This document shows, one piece after another, positions 18,987-37,998 of a DNA stretch of 64,000 bases (positions within the stretch are counted from its first letter, which is position 1; each line of letters opens with the position of its first letter). The notes beneath the pieces were generated by a model, which saw only the letters and a program-made list of their open reading frames with translations, was not told where the DNA came from and made no database searches. The stretch comes from an uncultured Acidobacteriota bacterium (GTDB lineage: Bacteria; Acidobacteriota; Thermoanaerobaculia; Multivoradales; UBA5704). The translations under genes were made by a program, and so were the position numbers. The stretch covers positions 145,058 to 209,057 of the forward strand of contig CAVXIV010000018.1 in NCBI GenBank assembly GCA_963761805.1, read 5' to 3'.

Positions 18987-21900
18987 TCAGACCTCGAGGC
19001 GGCGACGGGCGAGCAACTCGTAGATGATCAGAGGATCGACCGGCTTGGTGAGGTGATGGTCGAATCCGGCCTCGCGCGAGAGACGCTGGTCCTCCTCCTG
19101 CCCATAACCCGTCAAGGCCACGAGCAGCGCTTTCGCGGTCCGCCGCCGCCGGCGCAGCCGGCCGGCGACCTGGTAGCCGTCCAGCCCGGGCAAGCCGATG
19201 TCGAGCAGGACGACCTCGGGATGGAACGAGCCGGCCTTTTTCAGCGCCGCCAGCCCATCGTGGGCCGTCTCGACGTCGTGTCCCCGCAAGCGCAGGAGGA
19301 GGGCCAGGCTCTCGGCCGTATCCACGTTGTCGTCCACCACCAGGATGCGGCGCGGCAGCGCCGCGACCCGCGATGGTGCTGCCCGCGGCCTCGCCGTAGC
19401 GCTCCGGCGCCGTGTCCGCGGAGGTTTGGACGGGCAGACGCACCACGAGCTCGCTGCCCTGTCCCAGTCCTTCGCTGCCGGCTTCGACGCTGCCGCCGTG
19501 CAGCTCGACGAGGCGGCGCACCAGCGTCAGGCCGATTCCCAATCCCCCTCCCTTGCGGTCGTACGAGCGGTCCGCCTGCATGAACAGGTCGAAGATGCGC
19601 GGCAGCGTTTCCGGCGCCATGCCGCTGCCGTCGTCGCGGACCCGCACCACGACTTCGCCGGGAGCCTCGCCCTGTCCCAGCTCCGCCGTCACCCAGAGAT
19701 GGCCGCCGTAGGGAGTGAACTTGGAAGCGTTGTTCAGCAGGTTGCCGAAGATCTGATCCAGACGGGTGGGGTCGGCGTCGACGTAGACCGGCTCGCGCGG
19801 CAGCGTCAGCGCCAGCTCCTGGCCGCGCCGCCGCCATGAGGGGCTGGGTCTGCTCGACCACCCGCCTGAGCAAAGTCCGCCAGCTCGACCCGCTCCCTGC
19901 GCAGGCGGACCTCGCCCCGGGTGATGCGGGAGACGTCGAGCAGGTCTTCGATCAACCGCGACATGTTTTGAATCTGCCGGTTCATCATGTTCCGCGCCTG
20001 CTCGACCGCGGCGGCGTCGGCGCCGGCGGCCTCCAGCACGTGCGCGGCGTTGCGCAGGGGAGCCAGGGGATTGCGCAGCTCATGGGCCAGCAGGGCCAGG
20101 AACTCGTTCTTGCTGCGGTCCGCGGCGGCCAGTTCCTCGACGCGCTGGAGCAGAGCCGTTTCCAGCTCCTTGCGCGTGGTGATGTCTTCGATGGCGAGCA
20201 GGGTCAACGACCTCTGGCCGCTCTCCTGAAAGAACCGCCGGGCATTGAGGAGCATGGTCTTGCGGCCGATGCGCGGGAACTCCCGCTCCACCTCGTAGCC
20301 TTCCACGCCGCTGTCCTGAGGCCTCATCTCCTCCAGGAGCCGGCGCAGCTCGGGGATGTTCCATTGACCGTCTCCGAGCTCGTAGAAGAACCGGTGCTCC
20401 GTGGTCTCGGGCGTCTCCTCGAAGGTCTGATAGAACGACCGGCTCGCCGTCTGCACGCAGAGGTCCGCGTCCAGCACGAGGAGGGATTCGCGCACCGTCG
20501 CCACGATGCTTTCGGCATATTCGCGGGCGCGCCGCAGCATGTCGATGTCGACGAGCATGATCACCGCGCCGTCGATCTTGTTCTCCAGGGTCTTGTAGGG
20601 CTGGATGCGCAGCGAGTACCACAGCCCCTGGCGGTCCTGGACCTCGCATTCCCTGGCGCTGACCGTGTCGATCACCTCCGCCAGCAGCGGCTCCAGGTCG
20701 GGGACGCTCGAGGTTGAGCTTGATGTCGCTGATCGGCCGGCCGATGTCGGTGGGGATCAGGTTGAACAGCTTCTCCGCCATCGGCGTGAAGCGCCGGACG
20801 CGCAGGTTCTGCCCGAGGATGACGATCGCCATCTGGACGCTGCCGAGCAGGTTGACCAGGTCGTTGTTGAGCCGGTTCAGCTCGGCGTTGCGGTTCTGCA
20901 GCTCGTCGTTGACCGTGGCCAGCTCTTCGTTGCTCGACTGGATCTCCTCCTTGGAGGTCTCCAGCTCTTCGTTGATGCTCTGCAGCTCCTCGTTGGCCGA
21001 CTGCACCTCCTCGTTGGCGGACTGCAGCTCCTCGTTGGCGGCCTCCTGCTGCTCGATCACCGACTGGAGGTATTCGCGGGTGGCGGCCAGCTCCTGCGCC
21101 AGGCGGGCGTTCTCTCCTTCGGCGAGCCTCGTTCCCGCCGCGGCGGCCCTGGCGCTTCTTCCCTCGCGGGAGTCGGCGGCGCCGCGGCGGAGCGCGGCTC
21201 TTCGAACAGGACCAGGAAGCCGCCTTCCGCCCGCCGAGCTTCCCTTGACGGGAACCACTTCCAGATGGACTTCCCGGGTGCCGCCGTCGGACTGGACCCG
21301 CAGTCCCTCCTCGCGGACCGGGGCCTCCTCCTTGCCGGGCCTTGCCGAGCGCGGCCCGCAGCGCGACCGCCAGCCCCTCCCGCACCATCTTGAGCAGGTT
21401 CAGGCTGGCCTTGCCCGGCGCCGGCGCCAGGTACGGCCCGGTGTCCCCGCGGAACTGCAGGATCTCCAGATCGGCGTTGACCAGCACGCCGGGCGGGGCG
21501 TACCTCGCCAGGAGGATGCGGTCGGCCTCTTTCTGCACGTCGGTCGCCGGCACGGCCGCGAGCGGACCGGGATCGTGCCGGGCTCCTCCCGGTCCCGGTG
21601 GAAATTGGCGGCCTGGCCGAAGGCCGACCGGCGGGCGGCGGGCTTCTTGGCGTAGATCTTGTGCCTGGCGTCCGTCGCCTCGAACAGGTCGCGGTAGGAG
21701 CCGATCGTCTCCGAGCTGCCCAGCAGAGGAAGCCCGCCGGCTTCAGGGCGTAGTGCAGGAGCGGCACGACCTTCTGCTGCAGCGCCGGCTCCAGGTAGAT
21801 GAGCAGGTTGCGGCAGCTGATCAGGTCCATCTGGGAGAAGGGCGGGTCGGTCAGCACGTTGTGCCGGGCGAACACGCACATGTCGCGGATCGACTTGCTG

Positions 21901-31690: not shown

Positions 31691-31792
31691 GGGAAAACCT
31701 CTTTTCTAGGGGCCAGGGCCGCTGACCGGATACTAGCAGGCTGTCTACTCGTACGACGTCCCCGAAGCTCATTCCGGGATTCTGAAGGGCCG

Positions 31793-31906
31793 CGCCCCCG
31801 CCCGGGCATAAATGCCCGGGCTAGTCAAAAGAGCCCCCTGAAGGGGACTCCAGCAGTCGGGTTCACCCGGCTGTTTCGCATAGCCCGGGCATTTATGCCC
31901 GGGCGG
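31793..31906. repeat. MITE-like element copy 1 (about 113 bp) with hairpin termini CCCGGGCATAAATGCCCGGG ... CCCGGGCATTTATGCCCGGG
   Basis: Near-identical to 34210-34325 when read side by side. The terminal 20-mers are inverted repeats of each other and each is itself palindromic. Confidence 0.7.
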
Positions 31907-34209: not shown

Positions 34210-34325
34210 CCCGCCCGGGCATAAATGCCCGGGCTAGTCGAAAGAGCCCCCTGAAGGGGACTCCAGCAGTCGGGTTTACCCGGCTGTTTTCGTGGTAGCC
34301 CGGGCATTTATGCCCGGGCGGGGGG
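34210..34325. repeat. MITE-like element copy 2, same orientation as copy 1
   Basis: CCGCCCGGGCATAAATGCCCGGGCTAGTCGAAAGAGCCCCCTGAAGGGGACTCCAGCAGTCGGGTTTACCCGGCTGTTTT...TAGCCCGGGCATTTATGCCCGGGCGG. Confidence 0.7.
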
Positions 34326-34458
34326 CGCGGTGCCCCTCCCCCCCGACCGCCGGGAGAGGAGGGGAGACAGGAACCAGCTTTCTCTAAACAGCCTTGTCAG
34401 GCCCGGACGAAGGGAGTACATTCATCGCCTTGTGCATCTTTCTTTAAAGGAGGAAGCG

Positions 34459-35127
34459 ATGGAGATCGCCTGTCGTCGGAGAATCGTAGCGTTGGGCGTC
34501 CTGGTTCTCTTGGGTGTGCTCGCCGCCGCCGGTCCGGGAGCGGCGGCCGAGGCGGCGGCCGGGTTCGGGGATGGGGGGCCGGGGTACTGCGTCGGGAACA
34601 GCTTCTGCGACGACATGGCCTGCTACGCGCCGGAGGCCCCGATCTCGCAGGTGGCCTGCCGGTGCAAGCTGATCGATCCTTTGTGCGGCATCGGCGAGTG
34701 CGTGAACGGCAGCGCCTACTGTGAAGGTCCGTTCTGCCCGGCCCCGGTGTGCTACGACTCGACCTCGGTCATCTCCCAGGTGCTCTGCCAGGGCGCCGAG
34801 CTCGACGACAACTGCCAGATCGAAAAGAAGGGCTGCGGCCCGGGCTATTGCGTCGGGGACAGCTTCTGCGACGACTGCGCGTGCTATGCCCCGTGGGCTC
34901 CGATCTCGCAGGTGGCCTGCCGTTGCCATCTGATGGACCCCGCCTGCGGCATCGGCGAGTGCGTGGGCAACGGCGCCTACTGCGAAGGTCCGTTCTGCCC
35001 GGCGCCGGTCTGCTACACCCAGACCCATCCGATCTCGCAGGTGCTCTGCCAAGGCGGCACCCTGGGAGCCGACTGCAAGCTGAACAGCGGTCCTGTCGTC
35101 ATCGGCGACGATCCGGTGGAGAAGTAA
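34459..35127 (+). CDS. secreted protein made of two tandem cysteine-rich domains of about 86 aa (12-13 Cys each)
   Basis: AAAGGAGGA lies before ATG 34459. Signal peptide MEIACRRRIVALGVLVLLGVLAAAGPGAAA. The repeat GPGYCVG(N/D)SFCDD.ACYAP.APISQVACRC.L.DP.CGIGECV...AYCEGPFCPAPVCY....ISQVLCQG occurs twice. Confidence 0.65.
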   Translation: MEIACRRRIVALGVLVLLGVLAAAGPGAAAEAAAGFGDGGPGYCVGNSFCDDMACYAPEAPISQVACRCKLIDPLCGIGECVNGSAYCEGPFCPAPVCYDSTSVISQVLCQGAELDDNCQIEKKGCGPGYCVGDSFCDDCACYAPWAPISQVACRCHLMDPACGIGECVGNGAYCEGPFCPAPVCYTQTHPISQVLCQGGTLGADCKLNSGPVVIGDDPVEK

Positions 35128-35167
35128 GGTGGAGTGAGGGCCTGCGGCCGGGCCCTCACTACCCCGG

Positions 35168-35228: not shown

Positions 35229-35645
35229 CTAGTCGAGACCCCAACTGACCGTGCAGTTAATGAAACCGGTCCCCGAAATCTTCTGGAGAGCGACCCTGAT
35301 GCTGCTTCCGAATCGGATGTTCATGGGAACCATATCCGAATAGTAGACGGTGCCATCCGGGCTGGTGTGATAGAGCGCCTGCGCAAAATCGAGGGTCTGC
35401 GCCGCGCCGCCGTCCACGTAGAAATGTAAACGTGTACTGAGGATGACAGCATCCTGCGAACACTGGAATCCTTTAATGTTCCCGGAGCCGCTGGTGAGAG
35501 GAATCACGTCGACGGTGGTGTTCGAGCTGACATTATTGGAGCTGAGACGAGGCTTCGTCTGTCCCTCATCCACGGCCCAGGCGCCGGAAGCGATGGACAG
35601 AGCCAGAACAATAGCGGACAGGATGCTGAGTCGAACGGTTTTCAT
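35229..35645 (-). CDS. hypothetical secreted protein, 138 aa
   Basis: ATG at 35645 after GGAGA. Signal peptide MKTVRLSILSAIVLALSIASGAWA. No family recognised. Confidence 0.5.
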   Translation of the reverse strand: MKTVRLSILSAIVLALSIASGAWAVDEGQTKPRLSSNNVSSNTTVDVIPLTSGSGNIKGFQCSQDAVILSTRLHFYVDGGAAQTLDFAQALYHTSPDGTVYYSDMVPMNIRFGSSIRVALQKISGTGFINCTVSWGLD

Positions 35646-35924
35646 GGAGTCTCCTTCTGGGAAGCGGCTTCCCAAAGATGGTCCCCGGACCGCCTCGGCC
35701 TGAGGCTATGCCTCACGATGGCCGCGGGCCGAGAAGTCGATGACCAAAACCTTCCTGAAAAACTTACCTTAATTCATCATTCTCCCTCTTGCTGTTGTAG
35801 TGCCGCCCGCCTCTGGAAGCGGGACGGGGCTTCCTGGAACACTCCCGGCCTCTCTCGTCCTCCCTCGCCGGGAGAGGAGGGGAGACCTTTCCGCCGCGCC
35901 GTTAATCTGCCGCGAGCCGTCGCC

Positions 35925-36505
35925 TGGAGATTCTGGCCTGGAGAAGTTGGCGACGAGCCGGAGTCCCGGGACTTGGGTCTGGAGAAGTTGACGCCGGCTC
36001 AGAGTCTGGAGACTCTGGCTTGGAGATGTTGACTCTGCGCCGGAGTCAGGAGACTTTGCGCCGGAGATCTCGACTTCGCCTCAGAGATCTCGACTTTGCG
36101 CCGGAGACGTTGACTCTGCATCAGAGTCCCGGGACTTTGCGCCGGAGAGGTTGACGCTGGCGCAGAGTCTGGAGACTCTGGCCTGGAGATCTTGACGTTA
36201 CGCCAGAGTCAGGAGACTCTGGCCTGGAGATCTCGACTTCGCCTCAGAGATCTCGACCTTGCGCCGGAGACGTTGACTTCGCCTCAGAGTCCCGAGACTT
36301 TGCATCGGAGATGTTGGCGCTGGCGCAGAGTCAGGAGACTTTGCCTCAGAGATCTTGGCTTCGCCTCAGAGATCTCGACTTTGCGCCGGAGATGTTGACT
36401 TTGCATCAGAGTCCCGAGACTCTGCATCGAAGGCGTTGACGCTGGCGCAGAGTACGGGGACTCTGGCTTGGAGGAGTTGACGACGGGTCGGAGTCCCGGG
36501 CAACG
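35925..36505. repeat. tandem array A: about 28 degenerate units of 20-21 bp, each with a short palindromic core (GAGTC-N4-GACTC, GAGATCTC) or GGAGNNGTTGAC
   Basis: Units parsed by hand, e.g. cgccggagatctcgacttcg / cctcagagatctcgactttg / cgccggagacgttgactctg / catcagagtcccgggactttg. Stops in all frames (only short ORFs in the track). Confidence 0.8.
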
Positions 36506-36595
36506 GCTCTGACTGGACCGCCGCCCGCTCCTCCGGCAAGCCGCGGCGAAGCACCTGGCCCCTATCCCGTCGCCTTTATCCCGCCGCCCTGGGGG

Positions 36596-36751
36596 CTAGC
36601 ACGTCTCCAGGCCGGACCTGCCGCACTCCTGCACACAGGTGATGTTGCCGCAATTGCTGCCGCTGCCACCGATGACCATGAAACCCTGGCTGTCGTTCAG
36701 CTTCAGCAGGGTCTCCTTCGCGAGGGTGATCTTCTTGACCTGCTTCTTCAT
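36596..36751 (-). CDS. candidate RiPP/bacteriocin precursor, 51 aa, double-glycine leader (MKKQVKKITLAKETLLKLNDSQGFMVIGG / SGSNCGNITCVQECGRSGLETC)
   Basis: Below the track size cut-off; translated by hand from the minus strand. GGAG lies 5 nt upstream of the ATG. The leader resembles K-rich ...L.KETL..L....GG leaders. The core has 4 Cys and 5 Ser/Thr. Confidence 0.6.
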   Translation of the reverse strand: MKKQVKKITLAKETLLKLNDSQGFMVIGGSGSNCGNITCVQECGRSGLETC

Positions 36752-36874
36752 GGCGGCTCCCTGGATAAGGGCAGGGTCGCCATTGACCCCACCCTTTCAT
36801 CCAGGGAATCGTAACGCGAAAACCTCCGGCGCCTACTGGGGCGGCCATTGATGCCCCGGCTGGCATCTCACCCA

Positions 36875-37335
36875 CCGACCTTTCGGCGTCAACCGGCAAC
36901 GTTCGGGGACCAACCCGGAAGGTTCGCTGACCAACCCGGAAGCTTCGCGGATCAACCCGGAAGCTTCGCGGACCAACCCGGAAGCTTCGGGGATCAACCC
37001 GGAAGCTTCACGGTTGACCTCGCAAGCTTCCCGGTTGAAGCCGGAAGGTCCGGGGATGACGCCGCAAGCTTCCCGGTTGAAGCCGCAAGCTTCCCGGTTG
37101 AAGCTGGAAGCTTCGGGGATGAACCCACAAGCTTCCCGGTTGACGCCGAAAGCTTCGCGGTTGACCTCGCAAGCTTCCCGGTTGAAGCCGGAAGGTTCGG
37201 GGATGAACCCGCAAGCTTCGCGGTTGACCTCGCAAGCTTCCCGGTTGAAGCCGGAAGCTTCGGGGATGAACCCGCAAGCTTCCCGGTTGAAGTCGGAAGG
37301 TTCGGGGATGAACCCGCAAGCTTCGCGGACGACGC
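36875..37335. repeat. tandem array B: about 22 degenerate units of exactly 21 bp around an AAGCTT core (e.g. ccggaagcttcgcggatcaac, cgcaagcttcccggttgaagc)
   Basis: Parsed by hand. The 21-bp period keeps five of six frames open, which explains the stacked track ORFs at 36833-37690. Confidence 0.8.
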
Positions 37336-37754
37336 TCGAACAGGAACCCGGCCCCGACCATCCCCAGAGCCCCAACGGGGCGCCGGCGCCATCGCCGCCG
37401 CCAGCCGGCCGCCAAGTGCCTGGCATCCACGCCGCACCCACGGACCGCGGGAGCGGCGGCTGAGCTCTCCGTCCCGCGATGCCCTCCCGGCAAGGCCCGG
37501 CCTCCCCGCCCCAGGTTGAAACCATGGGGCTACCCACGGTTGTCCCTGAAGGGACGATTAAGAGGAAGGCTATTTCAGAACGGGAGGGGAGACCCATGCC
37601 CCAACGGGGCAAAATTTGAAGAGCCCGGCGCTTCAGCGCCGGGTAGGCGATTCCCCCCGAATCCCCATCCGCCCCGGGGGCGGAACCCACCGGTCCGATA
37701 CCTGGACGCCGAAGGTGCCGCTCCTTAGAGCACCTGACAGAAGCGGTGGCAGAC

Positions 37755-37998
37755 CGGCCTGAAGGGCCGGGAGAACTAGCCCAGGGATGAGGCCGAAGGC
37801 CGATTCCCTGGGTGAGGGAATAGGGAGCATCAAAGCGGCCTGAAAGGCCGCGAGAACCTCGGCTGAATAGCAGTTGAGCTGATCCCGGCAGAGATTCTCG
37901 CGACCCTTCAGGCCGCTGAAATCGAGGGGGTCTTTCTTACCCAGGGCATTGGCCTTCGGCCTCAGCCCTGGGCTAGTTCTCCCGACCCGTTGGGCCGG
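37755..37998. repeat. about 245-bp imperfect palindrome (arms of about 105-120 bp), MITE-like or structured RNA
   Basis: The left arm ccggcctgaagggccgggagaactagcccagggatgaggccgaaggccgattccctggg... matches the reverse complement of the right arm ...cccagggcattggccttcggcctcagccctgggctagttctcccgacccgttgggccgg. Confidence 0.65.

Follow-up and report, generated by a model that had tools for sequence, protein, structure and literature searches.

The two tandem arrays, termed A and B, that flank a small peptide gene in the 64-kb window (the whole stretch of DNA that was analysed) are probably two unrelated insertions of lineage-specific, dispersed families of non-coding minisatellites of soil Thermoanaerobaculia (Acidobacteriota) on either side of an independent peptide cassette, in an intergenic zone that on this reading is repeat-rich and rearranging. 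Each unit is a short, imperfect palindrome that spans about two turns of the helix, and the arrays have defined end motifs (Table 1). Arrays occur at many unrelated chromosomal sites, with unit numbers that vary between copies and between relatives, and they have grown by duplication of multi-unit blocks, namely a 163-nt block in A and the amplification of a two-unit seed in B. The best reading is that the arrays are selfish minisatellites of a REP/BIME- or MIRU-like kind, any putative role in RNA structure or protein docking aside. In the following, W denotes the array copy in the studied window, and L001, L003 and similar labels denote related loci.

Table 1 Features of the two arrays and of the peptide cassette between them (positions in the window)
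Feature	Position	Strand	Description
Array A	35914..36489	+	About 27 head-to-tail units, strictly 20 or 21 nt
Left terminal motif, array A	35914..35924	+	GAGCCGTCGCC; family consensus RAGCCGTCGTC
Right terminal motif, array A	36479..36489	+	GACGACGGGTC; family consensus GTTGACGACGRSY
Precursor cassette, stand-alone class-I-lanthipeptide type	36596..36838	-	51-aa gene and about 90 nt of conserved upstream region, ending CAGTAGGCGCC
51-aa gene	36596-36751	-	
Element B	36847..37341	+	44-nt left arm (ATTGATGCCCCGGCTGGCATCTC...), 21-bp array, right end CGCGGACGACGCTCGAAC; sharp boundaries
Array B	36891-37335		21 units, each exactly 21 bp long, with AAGCTT as the core
Ancestral seed within left part of array B	36889-36901		TCAACCGGCAACG
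Left six units, array B	36891..37016	-	AACCCGGAAGCTTCGCGGAYC; inverted relative to the remaining units
Right 15 units, array B	37017..37335	+	Two alternating types, AAGCCGGAAGCTTCGGGGATG / AMSYCGCAAGCTTCCCGGTTG

Both of the tandem arrays described in the initial annotation were recovered with Tandem Repeats Finder. Array A was detected from 35938 to 36453 with a period of 41 nt (12.7 copies, 71% matches, 7% indels), a sub-period of 20 and a higher-order period of 163 nt (2.4-2.9 copies, 82-87%). Parsing of the array into units confirmed the three palindrome-bearing types that had been named earlier and gave about 27 units, every one of them 20 or 21 nt long; the 20-nt form reads YYGGAGAYSTTGACTCYGGS and the 21-nt form YCRGAGTC-N4-GACTYTGSS. 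The units have directional heads and tails and are all arranged head-to-tail in a single orientation. A 163-nt block of the type PgPbbgPg is present in about three copies in W and in roughly one in L001. The terminal motifs on the left and right are inverted complements of each other. Array A carries 2-6 stops in each frame, in line with the earlier statement that no frame is open. The unit counts in W (27 in A and 21 in B) are as given by the assembly.

Array B was detected from 36902 to 37330 with a period of 21 (20.4 copies, 76%, 0 indels), and the match rises to 80-81% at periods of 42 and 63, the higher-order periods that arise from the alternation of two unit types. A separate repeat search placed 18 copies in an exact 21-nt register. 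The left third (36868-37008) is inverted relative to 37024-37164, with 70% complementarity, and the B units contain only an 8-10-bp dyad centred on AAGCTT. It had been claimed that array B is open in five frames. This holds for three frames, which are open throughout; of the others, two minus frames are free of stops across the right-hand 15 units alone, and one plus frame is closed by stops in almost all units. No conserved repetitive protein reading through B was found, and the arrays are non-coding, as had been proposed.

The unit motifs occur far above chance, with 29 observed against 0.56 expected, 18 against 0.68 and 18 against 3.8 for the three motifs. In the 64-kb window, the first two are found almost exclusively in the arrays (28 of 29 and 18 of 18 matches), and the short third motif has five one-mismatch matches outside them, which is about the chance level. 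The GTTGA(C/A) element described as common to both arrays is present in each of them, and the shared sequence extends to GTTGAnnCCGG. The same unit types were found in an independent metagenome-assembled genome (MAG), in an ENA contig and in Logan contigs of soil runs; hence, as a sequence type, the arrays did not arise by misassembly. They were also correctly described as other than CRISPR, since the 20-21-nt units are all variants of one another and unique spacers are absent. CRISPR arrays resemble them in being regular and partly palindromic; they differ in having a period of about 60-70 nt, and no cas genes lie near the present arrays.

When 185,579 species genomes were scanned with the di-unit pattern, 12 multi-unit loci were found, all in a single MAG (Thermoanaerobaculia SMAG_U1959), and otherwise only four single matches, which were taken as chance. 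Together with two mini-arrays, SMAG_U1959 contains at least 14 A-type arrays of 4-30 units, all intergenic. Their neighbours are unrelated to one another and include dnaX/SRP RNA/tRNAs, glycosyltransferases, an APP1 phosphatase and a tyrosine recombinase; among these arrays, the peptide gene was found beside L001 only. L001 is the syntenic orthologue of the array A locus, with flanks 90.4% identical over 1762 nt and a peptide 94% identical to that of W, whereas the arrays themselves are only about 72% identical and have 19 units in L001 as against 27 in W. The parsing of 221 units of the family gave 141 of 20 nt and 80 of 21 nt, and GAG...(TT)GAC was invariant across them. The left end motif RAGCCGTCGTC was found in about half of the A-type arrays (W, L001, L003, L005b, L006 and L012) and the right end motif in about 10 of 14 members; where both are present, they form an 11-nt inverted pair, RAGCCGTCGTC / GACGACGGCTC. 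Almost every frame of every array in the family contains stops, and seven of the nine arrays with a clear context come after a co-oriented gene. An AT-rich conserved leader was observed in some members.

Element B is also present in at least two genomic contexts. The ENA metagenome contig L027 carries it with identical ends, with 9.4 units, between different flanks and with no peptide gene. Relatives of B were found solely through a match to a spurious open reading frame; the di-unit pattern of array B gave 0 matches in genome contigs and 0 in JGI metagenome contigs. Loose ends and flank reads in the soil runs match the flanks of L027. A form of B shorter by 210 nt in these runs was considered as an allele of the W locus and rejected, as it matches the L027 context and is thus another copy. 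In the soil runs, the peptide locus of a close relative lacks B, with a replacement of 619 nt by 73 nt and not a clean excision; this is the only 'empty' B site in a relative. L001 has only about two seed units of B at the orthologous spot and a separate seven-unit array of 21-nt repeats on the other side of the seed; the 21-bp arrays of L001 and W are independent amplifications.

The gene between the arrays encodes, as had been noted, a 51-aa GG-leader peptide with array B in its upstream region. The peptide matches the family NF038153 (lant_leader_L1a) with 26.3 bits against a cut-off of 22, and a look-up by identity returned no record for it. The cassette has 19 relatives of 80-89% identity in differing contexts, which share its upstream region and lack arrays. 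At five other loci, a cassette of this identity with the same upstream region has no arrays, from which it follows that the arrangement in W is a mosaic of independent modules. Element B starts 8 nt past the conserved upstream region of the cassette, and that adjoining region of about 90 nt, and not the arrays, is the conserved control region of the peptide gene. The link between arrays and peptide gene implied by the initial annotation was not borne out, given that the A family lies beside unrelated genes, that B occurs in L027 without the peptide and that these five cassettes are free of arrays. On the preferred reading, neither of the arrays serves this gene as a dedicated regulator. A 21-bp array was also observed in a distant precursor cluster, L017.

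The stems of the A units are 8-9 bp long, with Watson-Crick pairing at 564 of 720 and 629 of 1128 stem positions and G·T pairs in addition, and fold energies of the A arrays are -0.5 to -0.6 kcal/mol per nt. Among the non-Watson-Crick stem positions of the family, G·T pairs (338) far outnumber A·C (48), and the + strand gave a more stable fold than the - strand in 12 of 12 A arrays (mean difference 38 kcal/mol), counts that are not independent events since a common ancestral unit has passed on part of both the G·T excess and the folding bias. A contribution from strand-biased C-to-T mutation pressure is also conceivable. The A/G and T/C columns of the stems vary independently, apart from tolerance of wobble pairs, and compensatory change is therefore unsupported. 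The strict conservation of GAG, GAC, TTGAC and an A·A mismatch, combined with phasing every two turns, is also compatible with a binding protein that recognises a specific sequence.

With respect to transcription, metatranscriptome contigs extend from inside array A to the stop of the peptide gene at a depth similar to that of the gene; these contigs are unstranded, assembled and from a relative, and DNA carry-over is a possible source of them. Metatranscriptomes X13, X14, X15 and X17 gave matches to the coding part of the peptide only, from other paralogues or relatives. No sigma-70 promoter was found near the arrays in W, L007 and L003. Comparison with Rfam gave, inside the arrays of W, only sub-threshold chance matches (VA, mir-4427) and none at the gathering score in 11 related loci.

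These observations bear on several other explanations. A-type arrays could be structured-RNA genes or parts of them, in which a closed string of about 20 hairpins would sequester protein, or would stabilise or terminate transcripts from a 3'-UTR or intercistronic position. The strand-specific pairing, with C/T variation almost only opposite G, the better fold of the + strand in all 12 arrays, the ability of the end motifs to pair and close the array, the co-oriented gene in front of seven of the nine arrays and the coverage of the right end of array A by metatranscriptome contigs would agree with this. It is nevertheless judged unlikely, as no sigma-70-like promoter is found at the conserved leader, a canonical terminator separates the upstream gene from the array in L003 and L007, the flanking genes in W and L001 lie on the strand opposite to the better-folding one, no Rfam match was obtained, and the RNA evidence is thin and unstranded. 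To be doubted just as much is the proposal that the arrays are docking sites in double-stranded DNA, where dyads phased every two turns would each bind a dimeric DNA-binding or nucleoid-associated protein, and an array would nucleate or titrate many molecules of it, all on the same side of the helix. The asymmetry between strands, both in G·T against A·C and in folding, is not predicted by double-stranded recognition, no candidate gene for a binding protein is linked to the arrays, whose neighbours are unrelated, and the units turn over fast between relatives, with B differing from the array in L001. Nonetheless, the strict period (20/21 in A, 21 bp in B, without indels), the invariant cores (GAG, TTGAC and GACT; AAGCTT in B) separated by variable linkers, the many N4 centres that are palindromic or present in both orientations and the presence of GTTGAnnCCGG in A and B alike are features that such docking would explain. 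A wider proposal, tentative and on balance rather improbable, is that Thermoanaerobaculia possess a functional class of 'two-turn' arrays kept by selection, either as strand-specific multi-hairpin RNA or ssDNA with closure by a terminal stem or as docking lattices for one abundant protein, some of them perhaps coupled preferentially to stand-alone RiPP precursor cassettes; the families of this class, which look unrelated and include A, B and the 21-mers of L001 and L017, would share the 20-21-bp period, a GTTGAnnCCGG-like core and ends of the GACGACG type.

It is very unlikely that B, alone or together with A, controls the peptide gene from upstream, be it through repeated operators or enhancers or as a copy-number switch. 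Its start 8 nt beyond the conserved upstream region, the 21-bp repeats upstream of the gene in the L001 orthologue and the array in cluster L017 can be cited for it, against which stand the five array-free cassettes with the same upstream region, the copy in L027 without a peptide gene, the close relative's peptide locus without B and the independent amplification of the arrays in L001 and W. The suggestion of a phase-variable region survives in part, in that copy number differs between copies and relatives; nothing ties this difference to phase variation of a gene. It is highly improbable that array B encodes a heptad-repeat protein, for which the exact period without indels, the three frames open across B, the placement of an open reading frame in the same frame on L027 by a gene caller and a weak excess of variation in one codon phase could be adduced. 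In the codon-phase entropy test, B gave a weak signal that fell short of significance, and that of the coding control was weak too. The plus-frame reading frame has no homologue among 5.8 billion proteins, and the sole match of the minus-frame one covers only the array and the ends of the element (35% of the query), beyond which the sequences are unrelated. As the left third is inverted, every frame changes its repeat there; moreover, the L001 arrays give unrelated peptides, the B reading frames extend into REP-like elements that are non-coding, and the window contains, at 20895-21066, a 21-bp repeat that is truly coding and whose protein context is evident. The chance that the arrays are left over from a plasmid or phage iteron origin, the former of which had been put forward in the initial annotation, or from a sopC/parC-like partition centromere is practically negligible. 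The unit size is near that of iterons, and there is a higher-order unit of 41-43 bp with a dyad, which resembles F sopC; however, a blastn comparison with 72,556 plasmids revealed no similarity, no rep/par genes or domains lie beside the arrays, at least 14 copies are present on the chromosome in one genome beside housekeeping genes, and the 20-30 units far exceed the size of iteron sets. A role as a restriction-site decoy was also considered and rejected, as AAGCTT, GANTC, AGATCT and GTTGAC are not avoided outside the arrays.

Among known systems, REP/BIME sequences share with A imperfect palindromes of about 20 nt, stems of 8-9 bp and loops of 3-4 nt. They are likewise extragenic, mostly downstream of genes, present in many copies per genome, lineage-specific and capable of forming RNA or ssDNA hairpins, and clusters or arrays of them are known too. 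REPs carry an unpaired GTAG or CGTC tag at one end, and head-to-tail dimers of them are negligible (PMC3733652). Such a tag is missing from the present units, with CGTC/GACG in the terminal units only, and the present arrays contain 4-30 units head-to-tail whereas REPs are singletons or head-to-head or tail-to-tail dimers. No RAYT (Y1 HUH) transposase gene was found in the fetched array flanks. Similarity to mycobacterial MIRU and bacterial VNTR loci lies in the non-coding tandem units of tens of bp at many intergenic loci in one genome, in the variable copy number and in growth by slippage or block duplication. As in minisatellites, the units are arranged head-to-tail, fall within 10-100 bp and lie in non-coding DNA, and their number varies, with 27 (W) against 19 (L001) and 4-30 in the family for A and 21 against 9.4 (L027) for B. 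MIRU units are 40-100 bp long, are not hairpins and often carry small in-phase ORFs between the genes of an operon; the present units, in contrast, are 20-21-nt palindromes in arrays with specialised ends. Conserved end modules around variable tandem units are also known from the pneumococcal BOX elements, boxA-(boxB)n-boxC, which are similarly intergenic, dispersed and predicted to fold stably. In BOX elements, boxB is 45 nt long and present 0-8 times, and the end modules are long; the present elements reach 30 units of 20-21 nt, end in very short motifs and have no sequence similarity to BOX. Plasmid iterons, F sopC and R1 parC also consist of phased direct repeats (about 20 or 43 bp) that contain dyads; they are present in 3-12 copies beside rep/par on their replicon, unlike the present arrays, which are chromosomal and found at many sites. 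Since each array is a copy from its own scattered family and only happens to adjoin the peptide gene, the two represent a variety of the common interspersed repeats of bacteria and are not purpose-built for that gene.

As selfish minisatellites, the arrays have probably spread and expanded via hairpin-prone single-stranded intermediates, through slippage, template switching or unequal recombination, a route that has been suggested for REP/BIME and MIRU-type repeats. Neither a transposase nor the target-site duplications and clean empty sites expected of MITEs were found for A or B, and no direct repeats flank either; hence, mobility is deduced only from their distribution and sharp boundaries. 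Pairing in array A is favoured on one strand, and any effect would most likely be exerted at the single-strand level, as a string of RNA hairpins. Array A separates the peptide gene from the gene that follows it on that gene's strand and could there be an intercistronic stabiliser or attenuator. Other peptide cassettes carry a hairpin terminator, for which array A would stand in.

For annotation, the arrays should be marked as interspersed non-coding repeats and not as CRISPR, genes or origins, and the gene-caller reading frames across array B (e.g. P0020) are spurious. The A family, with its strict 20/21-nt hairpin units, specialised ends and strand-biased pairing, is a clean and easily searched example of a bacterial satellite in a poorly studied class of soil bacteria. 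It could serve as a marker for strain typing, and it offers a tractable case for studying how hairpin minisatellites originate, how they spread and whether they affect transcript ends.

Two tandem arrays, A and B, were confirmed in the window by inspection of the sequence and by Tandem Repeats Finder, and the small gene which the initial annotation had placed between them was found as a 51-aa gene on the minus strand (see table; the unit counts given for the window are those of a short-read-type assembly). Array A has a sub-period of 20 nt and a higher-order period of 163 nt (82-87%). In a repeat search of the window, array B keeps a register of exactly 21 nt, and its left third is the inverted complement of a neighbouring segment (70%); its matches reach 80-81% when the period is taken as 42 or 63. 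Three unit motifs were counted 18-29 times each, where shuffles gave an expectation of 0.6-3.8. Within the 64-kb window, motifs 1 and 2 are essentially array-only, and the short motif 3 has five one-mismatch matches outside the arrays, about chance level.

Features of the window and of related loci
Feature	Position	Strand	Remarks
392-aa ORF	window 20080-21258	minus	contains coding control
Coding control	window 20895-21066		21-bp tandem repeat
113-bp element	window 31790-31906		97% match, inverted, to L001 6291-6407
113-bp element	window 34210-34325		hairpin-ended; abuts indel
Gene indel	window 34367-35166		800 bp; double 12-Cys secreted protein; absent from L001
148-aa secreted protein	window 35229-35675	minus
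Array A	window 35938-36453		period 41; 12.7 copies; 71% matches; 7% indels
51-aa peptide gene	window 36596-36751	minus
Peptide cassette	window 36596-36838	minus	51-aa gene and conserved upstream region
Element B	window 36847-37341
Array B, left third	window 36868-37008		inverted complement of 37024-37164
Seed	window 36889-36901		TCAACCGGCAACG
Array B	window 36902-37330		period 21; 20.4 copies; 76% matches; zero indels
Depth spikes	window 37462-37548, 37723-37800		5-30-fold in soil metagenomes
Acido-Lenti-1	window 37597-37643	minus	29.5 bits; gathering score 37
Acido-Lenti-1	L001 3613-3659, 3684-3730		47 and 41 bits
A-type mini-array	L001 4149-4230
Seed-like units	L001 4433-4478		~2 units of 21 nt
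A-type array	L006		neighbours: GT2-TPR protein, APP1 phosphatase
A-type array	L010		neighbours: dnaX, SRP RNA, tRNAs
21-nt array	L010 5508-5606		AATGTTCGGAGCTCCCGGCCA x 4.7
A-type array	L016		neighbours: GT1 glycosyltransferase, tyrosine recombinase
21-nt array	L017 4431-4584		GATTCAGGTGCTGAAGCCTGA x ~7; indel-free

With 26.3 bits (cut-off 22), the peptide is recognised by NF038153, a model of class I lanthipeptide leaders, and 19 proteins are 80-89% identical to it. Five independent peptide loci were examined (L019/20, L021/22, L023, L024-26), and their neighbouring genes are quite different. An upstream region of ~100 nt (…CAGTAGGCGCCGGAGGTTTTCGCGGTTACGATTCC…) is kept at the four with a readable upstream flank; at L023, where the gene call extends further at the N-terminus, the flank shows only the start of this region. 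A clear hairpin terminator directly follows the stop codon at three of the five (L019/20, L021/22, L024-26), and a tandem array is found at none. Judged from these neighbourhoods, precursor and upstream region behave as a self-contained cassette, present in at least five settings, of which the arrays are no part. In the window the cassette ends 8 nt from element B and array A starts ~90 nt past the peptide stop; hence three modules, A, cassette and B, abut one another as a mosaic at this locus. Neither here nor in L001, the syntenic site of the related MAG Thermoanaerobaculia bacterium SMAG_U1959, is the gene followed by the usual terminator hairpin.

A search of relatives for the unit consensus had been proposed, and it returned A-type arrays of varying unit number at 12 loci of SMAG_U1959. 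The di-unit pattern GAGTC-N4-GACT-N7-9-GGAGA-NN-TTGAC was scanned in one genome for each of 185,579 species; all 12 multi-hit loci belong to this MAG, four further single matches in unrelated genomes equal the expected chance level, and the A family is thereby known from one related genome only in the scanned collections. L001 has flanks 90.4% identical to the window's over 1762 nt and a peptide 94% identical; its array occupies the position of array A but is only ~72% identical, with 19 units versus 27. The other A-type arrays adjoin unrelated genes, with the peptide gene at none of them, and two more mini-arrays of 4-7 units occur in L001 and L005. Four of the loci (L006, L007, L014, L016) share a ~100-nt element (…GCCCCCGGAGTGGGGCGACGGCATGTAGCCCCGGGCTTCAGCCCGGGGTACC) 3' of the array, which includes a GTAG-tagged REP-like hairpin and in L016 stands before the tyrosine recombinase gene (Phage_int_SAM_4 and Phage_integrase). 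At L010 a different 21-nt array lies immediately upstream of the A-type array, in the stretch that separates two tRNA genes from the SRP RNA/dnaX genes.

From the 12 arrays 221 clean A units were parsed, of which 141 have exactly 20 nt (consensus YYGGAGAYSTTGACTCYGGS) and 80 exactly 21 nt (YCRGAGTC-N4-GACTYTGSS). The two lengths alternate within higher-order blocks. Most arrays use the 102-nt block PggPg; the 163-nt block PgPbbgPg is present ~3 times in the window versus roughly once in L001, which accounts for the eight additional units of array A. Each unit is a hairpin over almost its full length, with GAG, (TT)GAC and GACT invariant and an A·A mismatch kept in 130 of the 141 20-nt units. 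Nearly all variable positions are C/T facing G, and the non-Watson-Crick stem positions comprise 338 G·T and 48 A·C. C and T swap freely facing G, T facing A never turns to C, and this is what would be expected were pairing on one strand important. On RNA folding, the plus strand of each of the 12 arrays was more stable than its minus strand, the mean difference being 38 kcal/mol; these stem and folding counts are not independent events, as the units share ancestry. The N4 centres of 21-nt units are found in both orientations (AGTT 24, AACT 10; CCGA 8, TCGG 5) and are self-complementary in 14 of 80.

Most A-type arrays are closed by a special end unit, GTTGACGACGRSY, and about half are opened by its inverted complement, RAGCCGTCGTC. 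Six A-family loci have in common a leader of ~40-70 nt (…TTCAGCCGCCGCGAC…GAAATTAAAT…), a sharing due in part to duplicated gene-plus-array segments (L015/L016, L003/L007); in L007 and L003 the co-oriented upstream gene has a canonical intrinsic terminator, which stands before the leader. No target-site duplication was seen around the arrays, and the scan detected no sigma-70-like promoter at those of the window, L007 and L003.

Element B was delimited with the help of L027, a 758-bp ENA metagenome contig found through P0020, an ORF called across its B-type array. Its left arm (ATTGATGCCCCGGCTGGCATCTC…TTTCGGCGTYAACCGGCAACG) and right end (…AAGCTTCGCGGACGACGCTCGAAC) are identical to the window's, and both flanks are unlike the window's; these shared ends fix the limits of the element. 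The L027 array has only 9.4 units and the peptide gene is absent. In the soil runs X1-X3, loose ends CCCGAAGGGGGCGA before 36846 and CTTGGCCGACGAGGTGCC… after 37341 both match the L027 flanks, and a contig with a relative's peptide gene lacks element B, since 73 other letters replace 36839-37457. By short anchors, the seed is common to the window and L001, where only ~2 seed-like 21-nt units stand at this site and a seven-unit 21-nt array (CTCTCAACGGCCCGTTCAAGG, 93% matches) lies on the opposite side of the seed. Hence, the two 21-nt arrays are independent local amplifications. Two strict scans for the B di-unit, in species genomes and JGI metagenomes, gave zero matches, so that B is rare and narrowly distributed. 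On the distant soil contig L017, which encodes two class-I-lanthipeptide-like precursors, a 21-nt array flanked by genes for an AMP-ligase and a UbiA-like membrane protein has a core, CTGAAGCCTGA, similar to array B's GTTGAAGCCGGA.

The zone around the mosaic also differs from L001, by the gene indel, the extra L001 mini-array and several multi-copy REP-like elements. The depth spikes indicate multi-copy repeats, and the Acido-Lenti-1 RNA motif, below its gathering score in the window, coincides with a hairpin element ending in GTAG. The 148-aa protein, encoded downstream of array A, weakly matches NF053514 (BLB8/JUQZ-1 family, labelled 'ocin') at E = 0.007, far below cut-off, and might form a functional pair with the peptide.

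Stops are present in every frame of array A, as had been claimed (2-6 per frame, all six frames). Array B had been described as open in five frames; three are fully open, two more only over the right 15 units, and one is closed. It was rejected as a gene, no conserved repetitive protein reading through it. A search of 5.8 billion proteins found nothing related to the plus-frame ORF. The minus-frame ORF matches P0020 alone, and this match covers just the array and element ends (35% of the query), beyond which the two sequences diverge. The inverted left third alters the repeat peptide in all frames, and peptides from the L001 arrays are unrelated to it. Variation is grouped in the 4-nt linker and not at each third base, and a codon-phase test was not significant. 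The coding control consists of NEELQS-type heptads, typical of chemotaxis methylation-type proteins.

A CRISPR nature, already denied by the initial annotation, is ruled out as the arrays have no spacers. Its suggestion of a plasmid iteron-like remnant was abandoned, as were centromeres, given the many copies on the chromosome and the lack of plasmid matches and of rep/par neighbours. A role as restriction-site decoys is ruled out, since the sites are not avoided elsewhere, and no known RNA family matches at the arrays. Docking sites for a DNA-binding protein are a less probable reading, which the strict phasing and invariant cores of the units would fit; no protein gene is linked to the arrays. 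The units of A resemble REPs, the short dispersed extragenic palindromes of bacteria, in having 8-9-bp stems and 3-4-nt loops (PMC3733652), but the window arrays lack two defining features, per-unit tags and inverted dimers. They were therefore filed as interspersed hairpin/minisatellite repeats and not as REP members. No published description of either family was found.

A and B are non-coding, lineage-specific, multi-locus repeats with defined ends and variable unit number, which gain units through duplication of blocks or amplification of a seed. Their behaviour would be that of selfish minisatellites, in which the tendency of the units to form hairpins would promote slippage, template switching and unequal exchange. 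The strand bias of A suggests that any effect of A is exerted via single-stranded hairpins. A relative's unstranded metatranscriptome contigs extend from within A (36305) as far as the peptide stop, with a depth near that of the gene, and weakly suggest transcription of the right end of A. Intercistronic REPs shield the upstream message and damp read-through. Array A separates the peptide gene from the next gene on the minus strand and, by analogy, could protect the upstream message and damp read-through in the same way.
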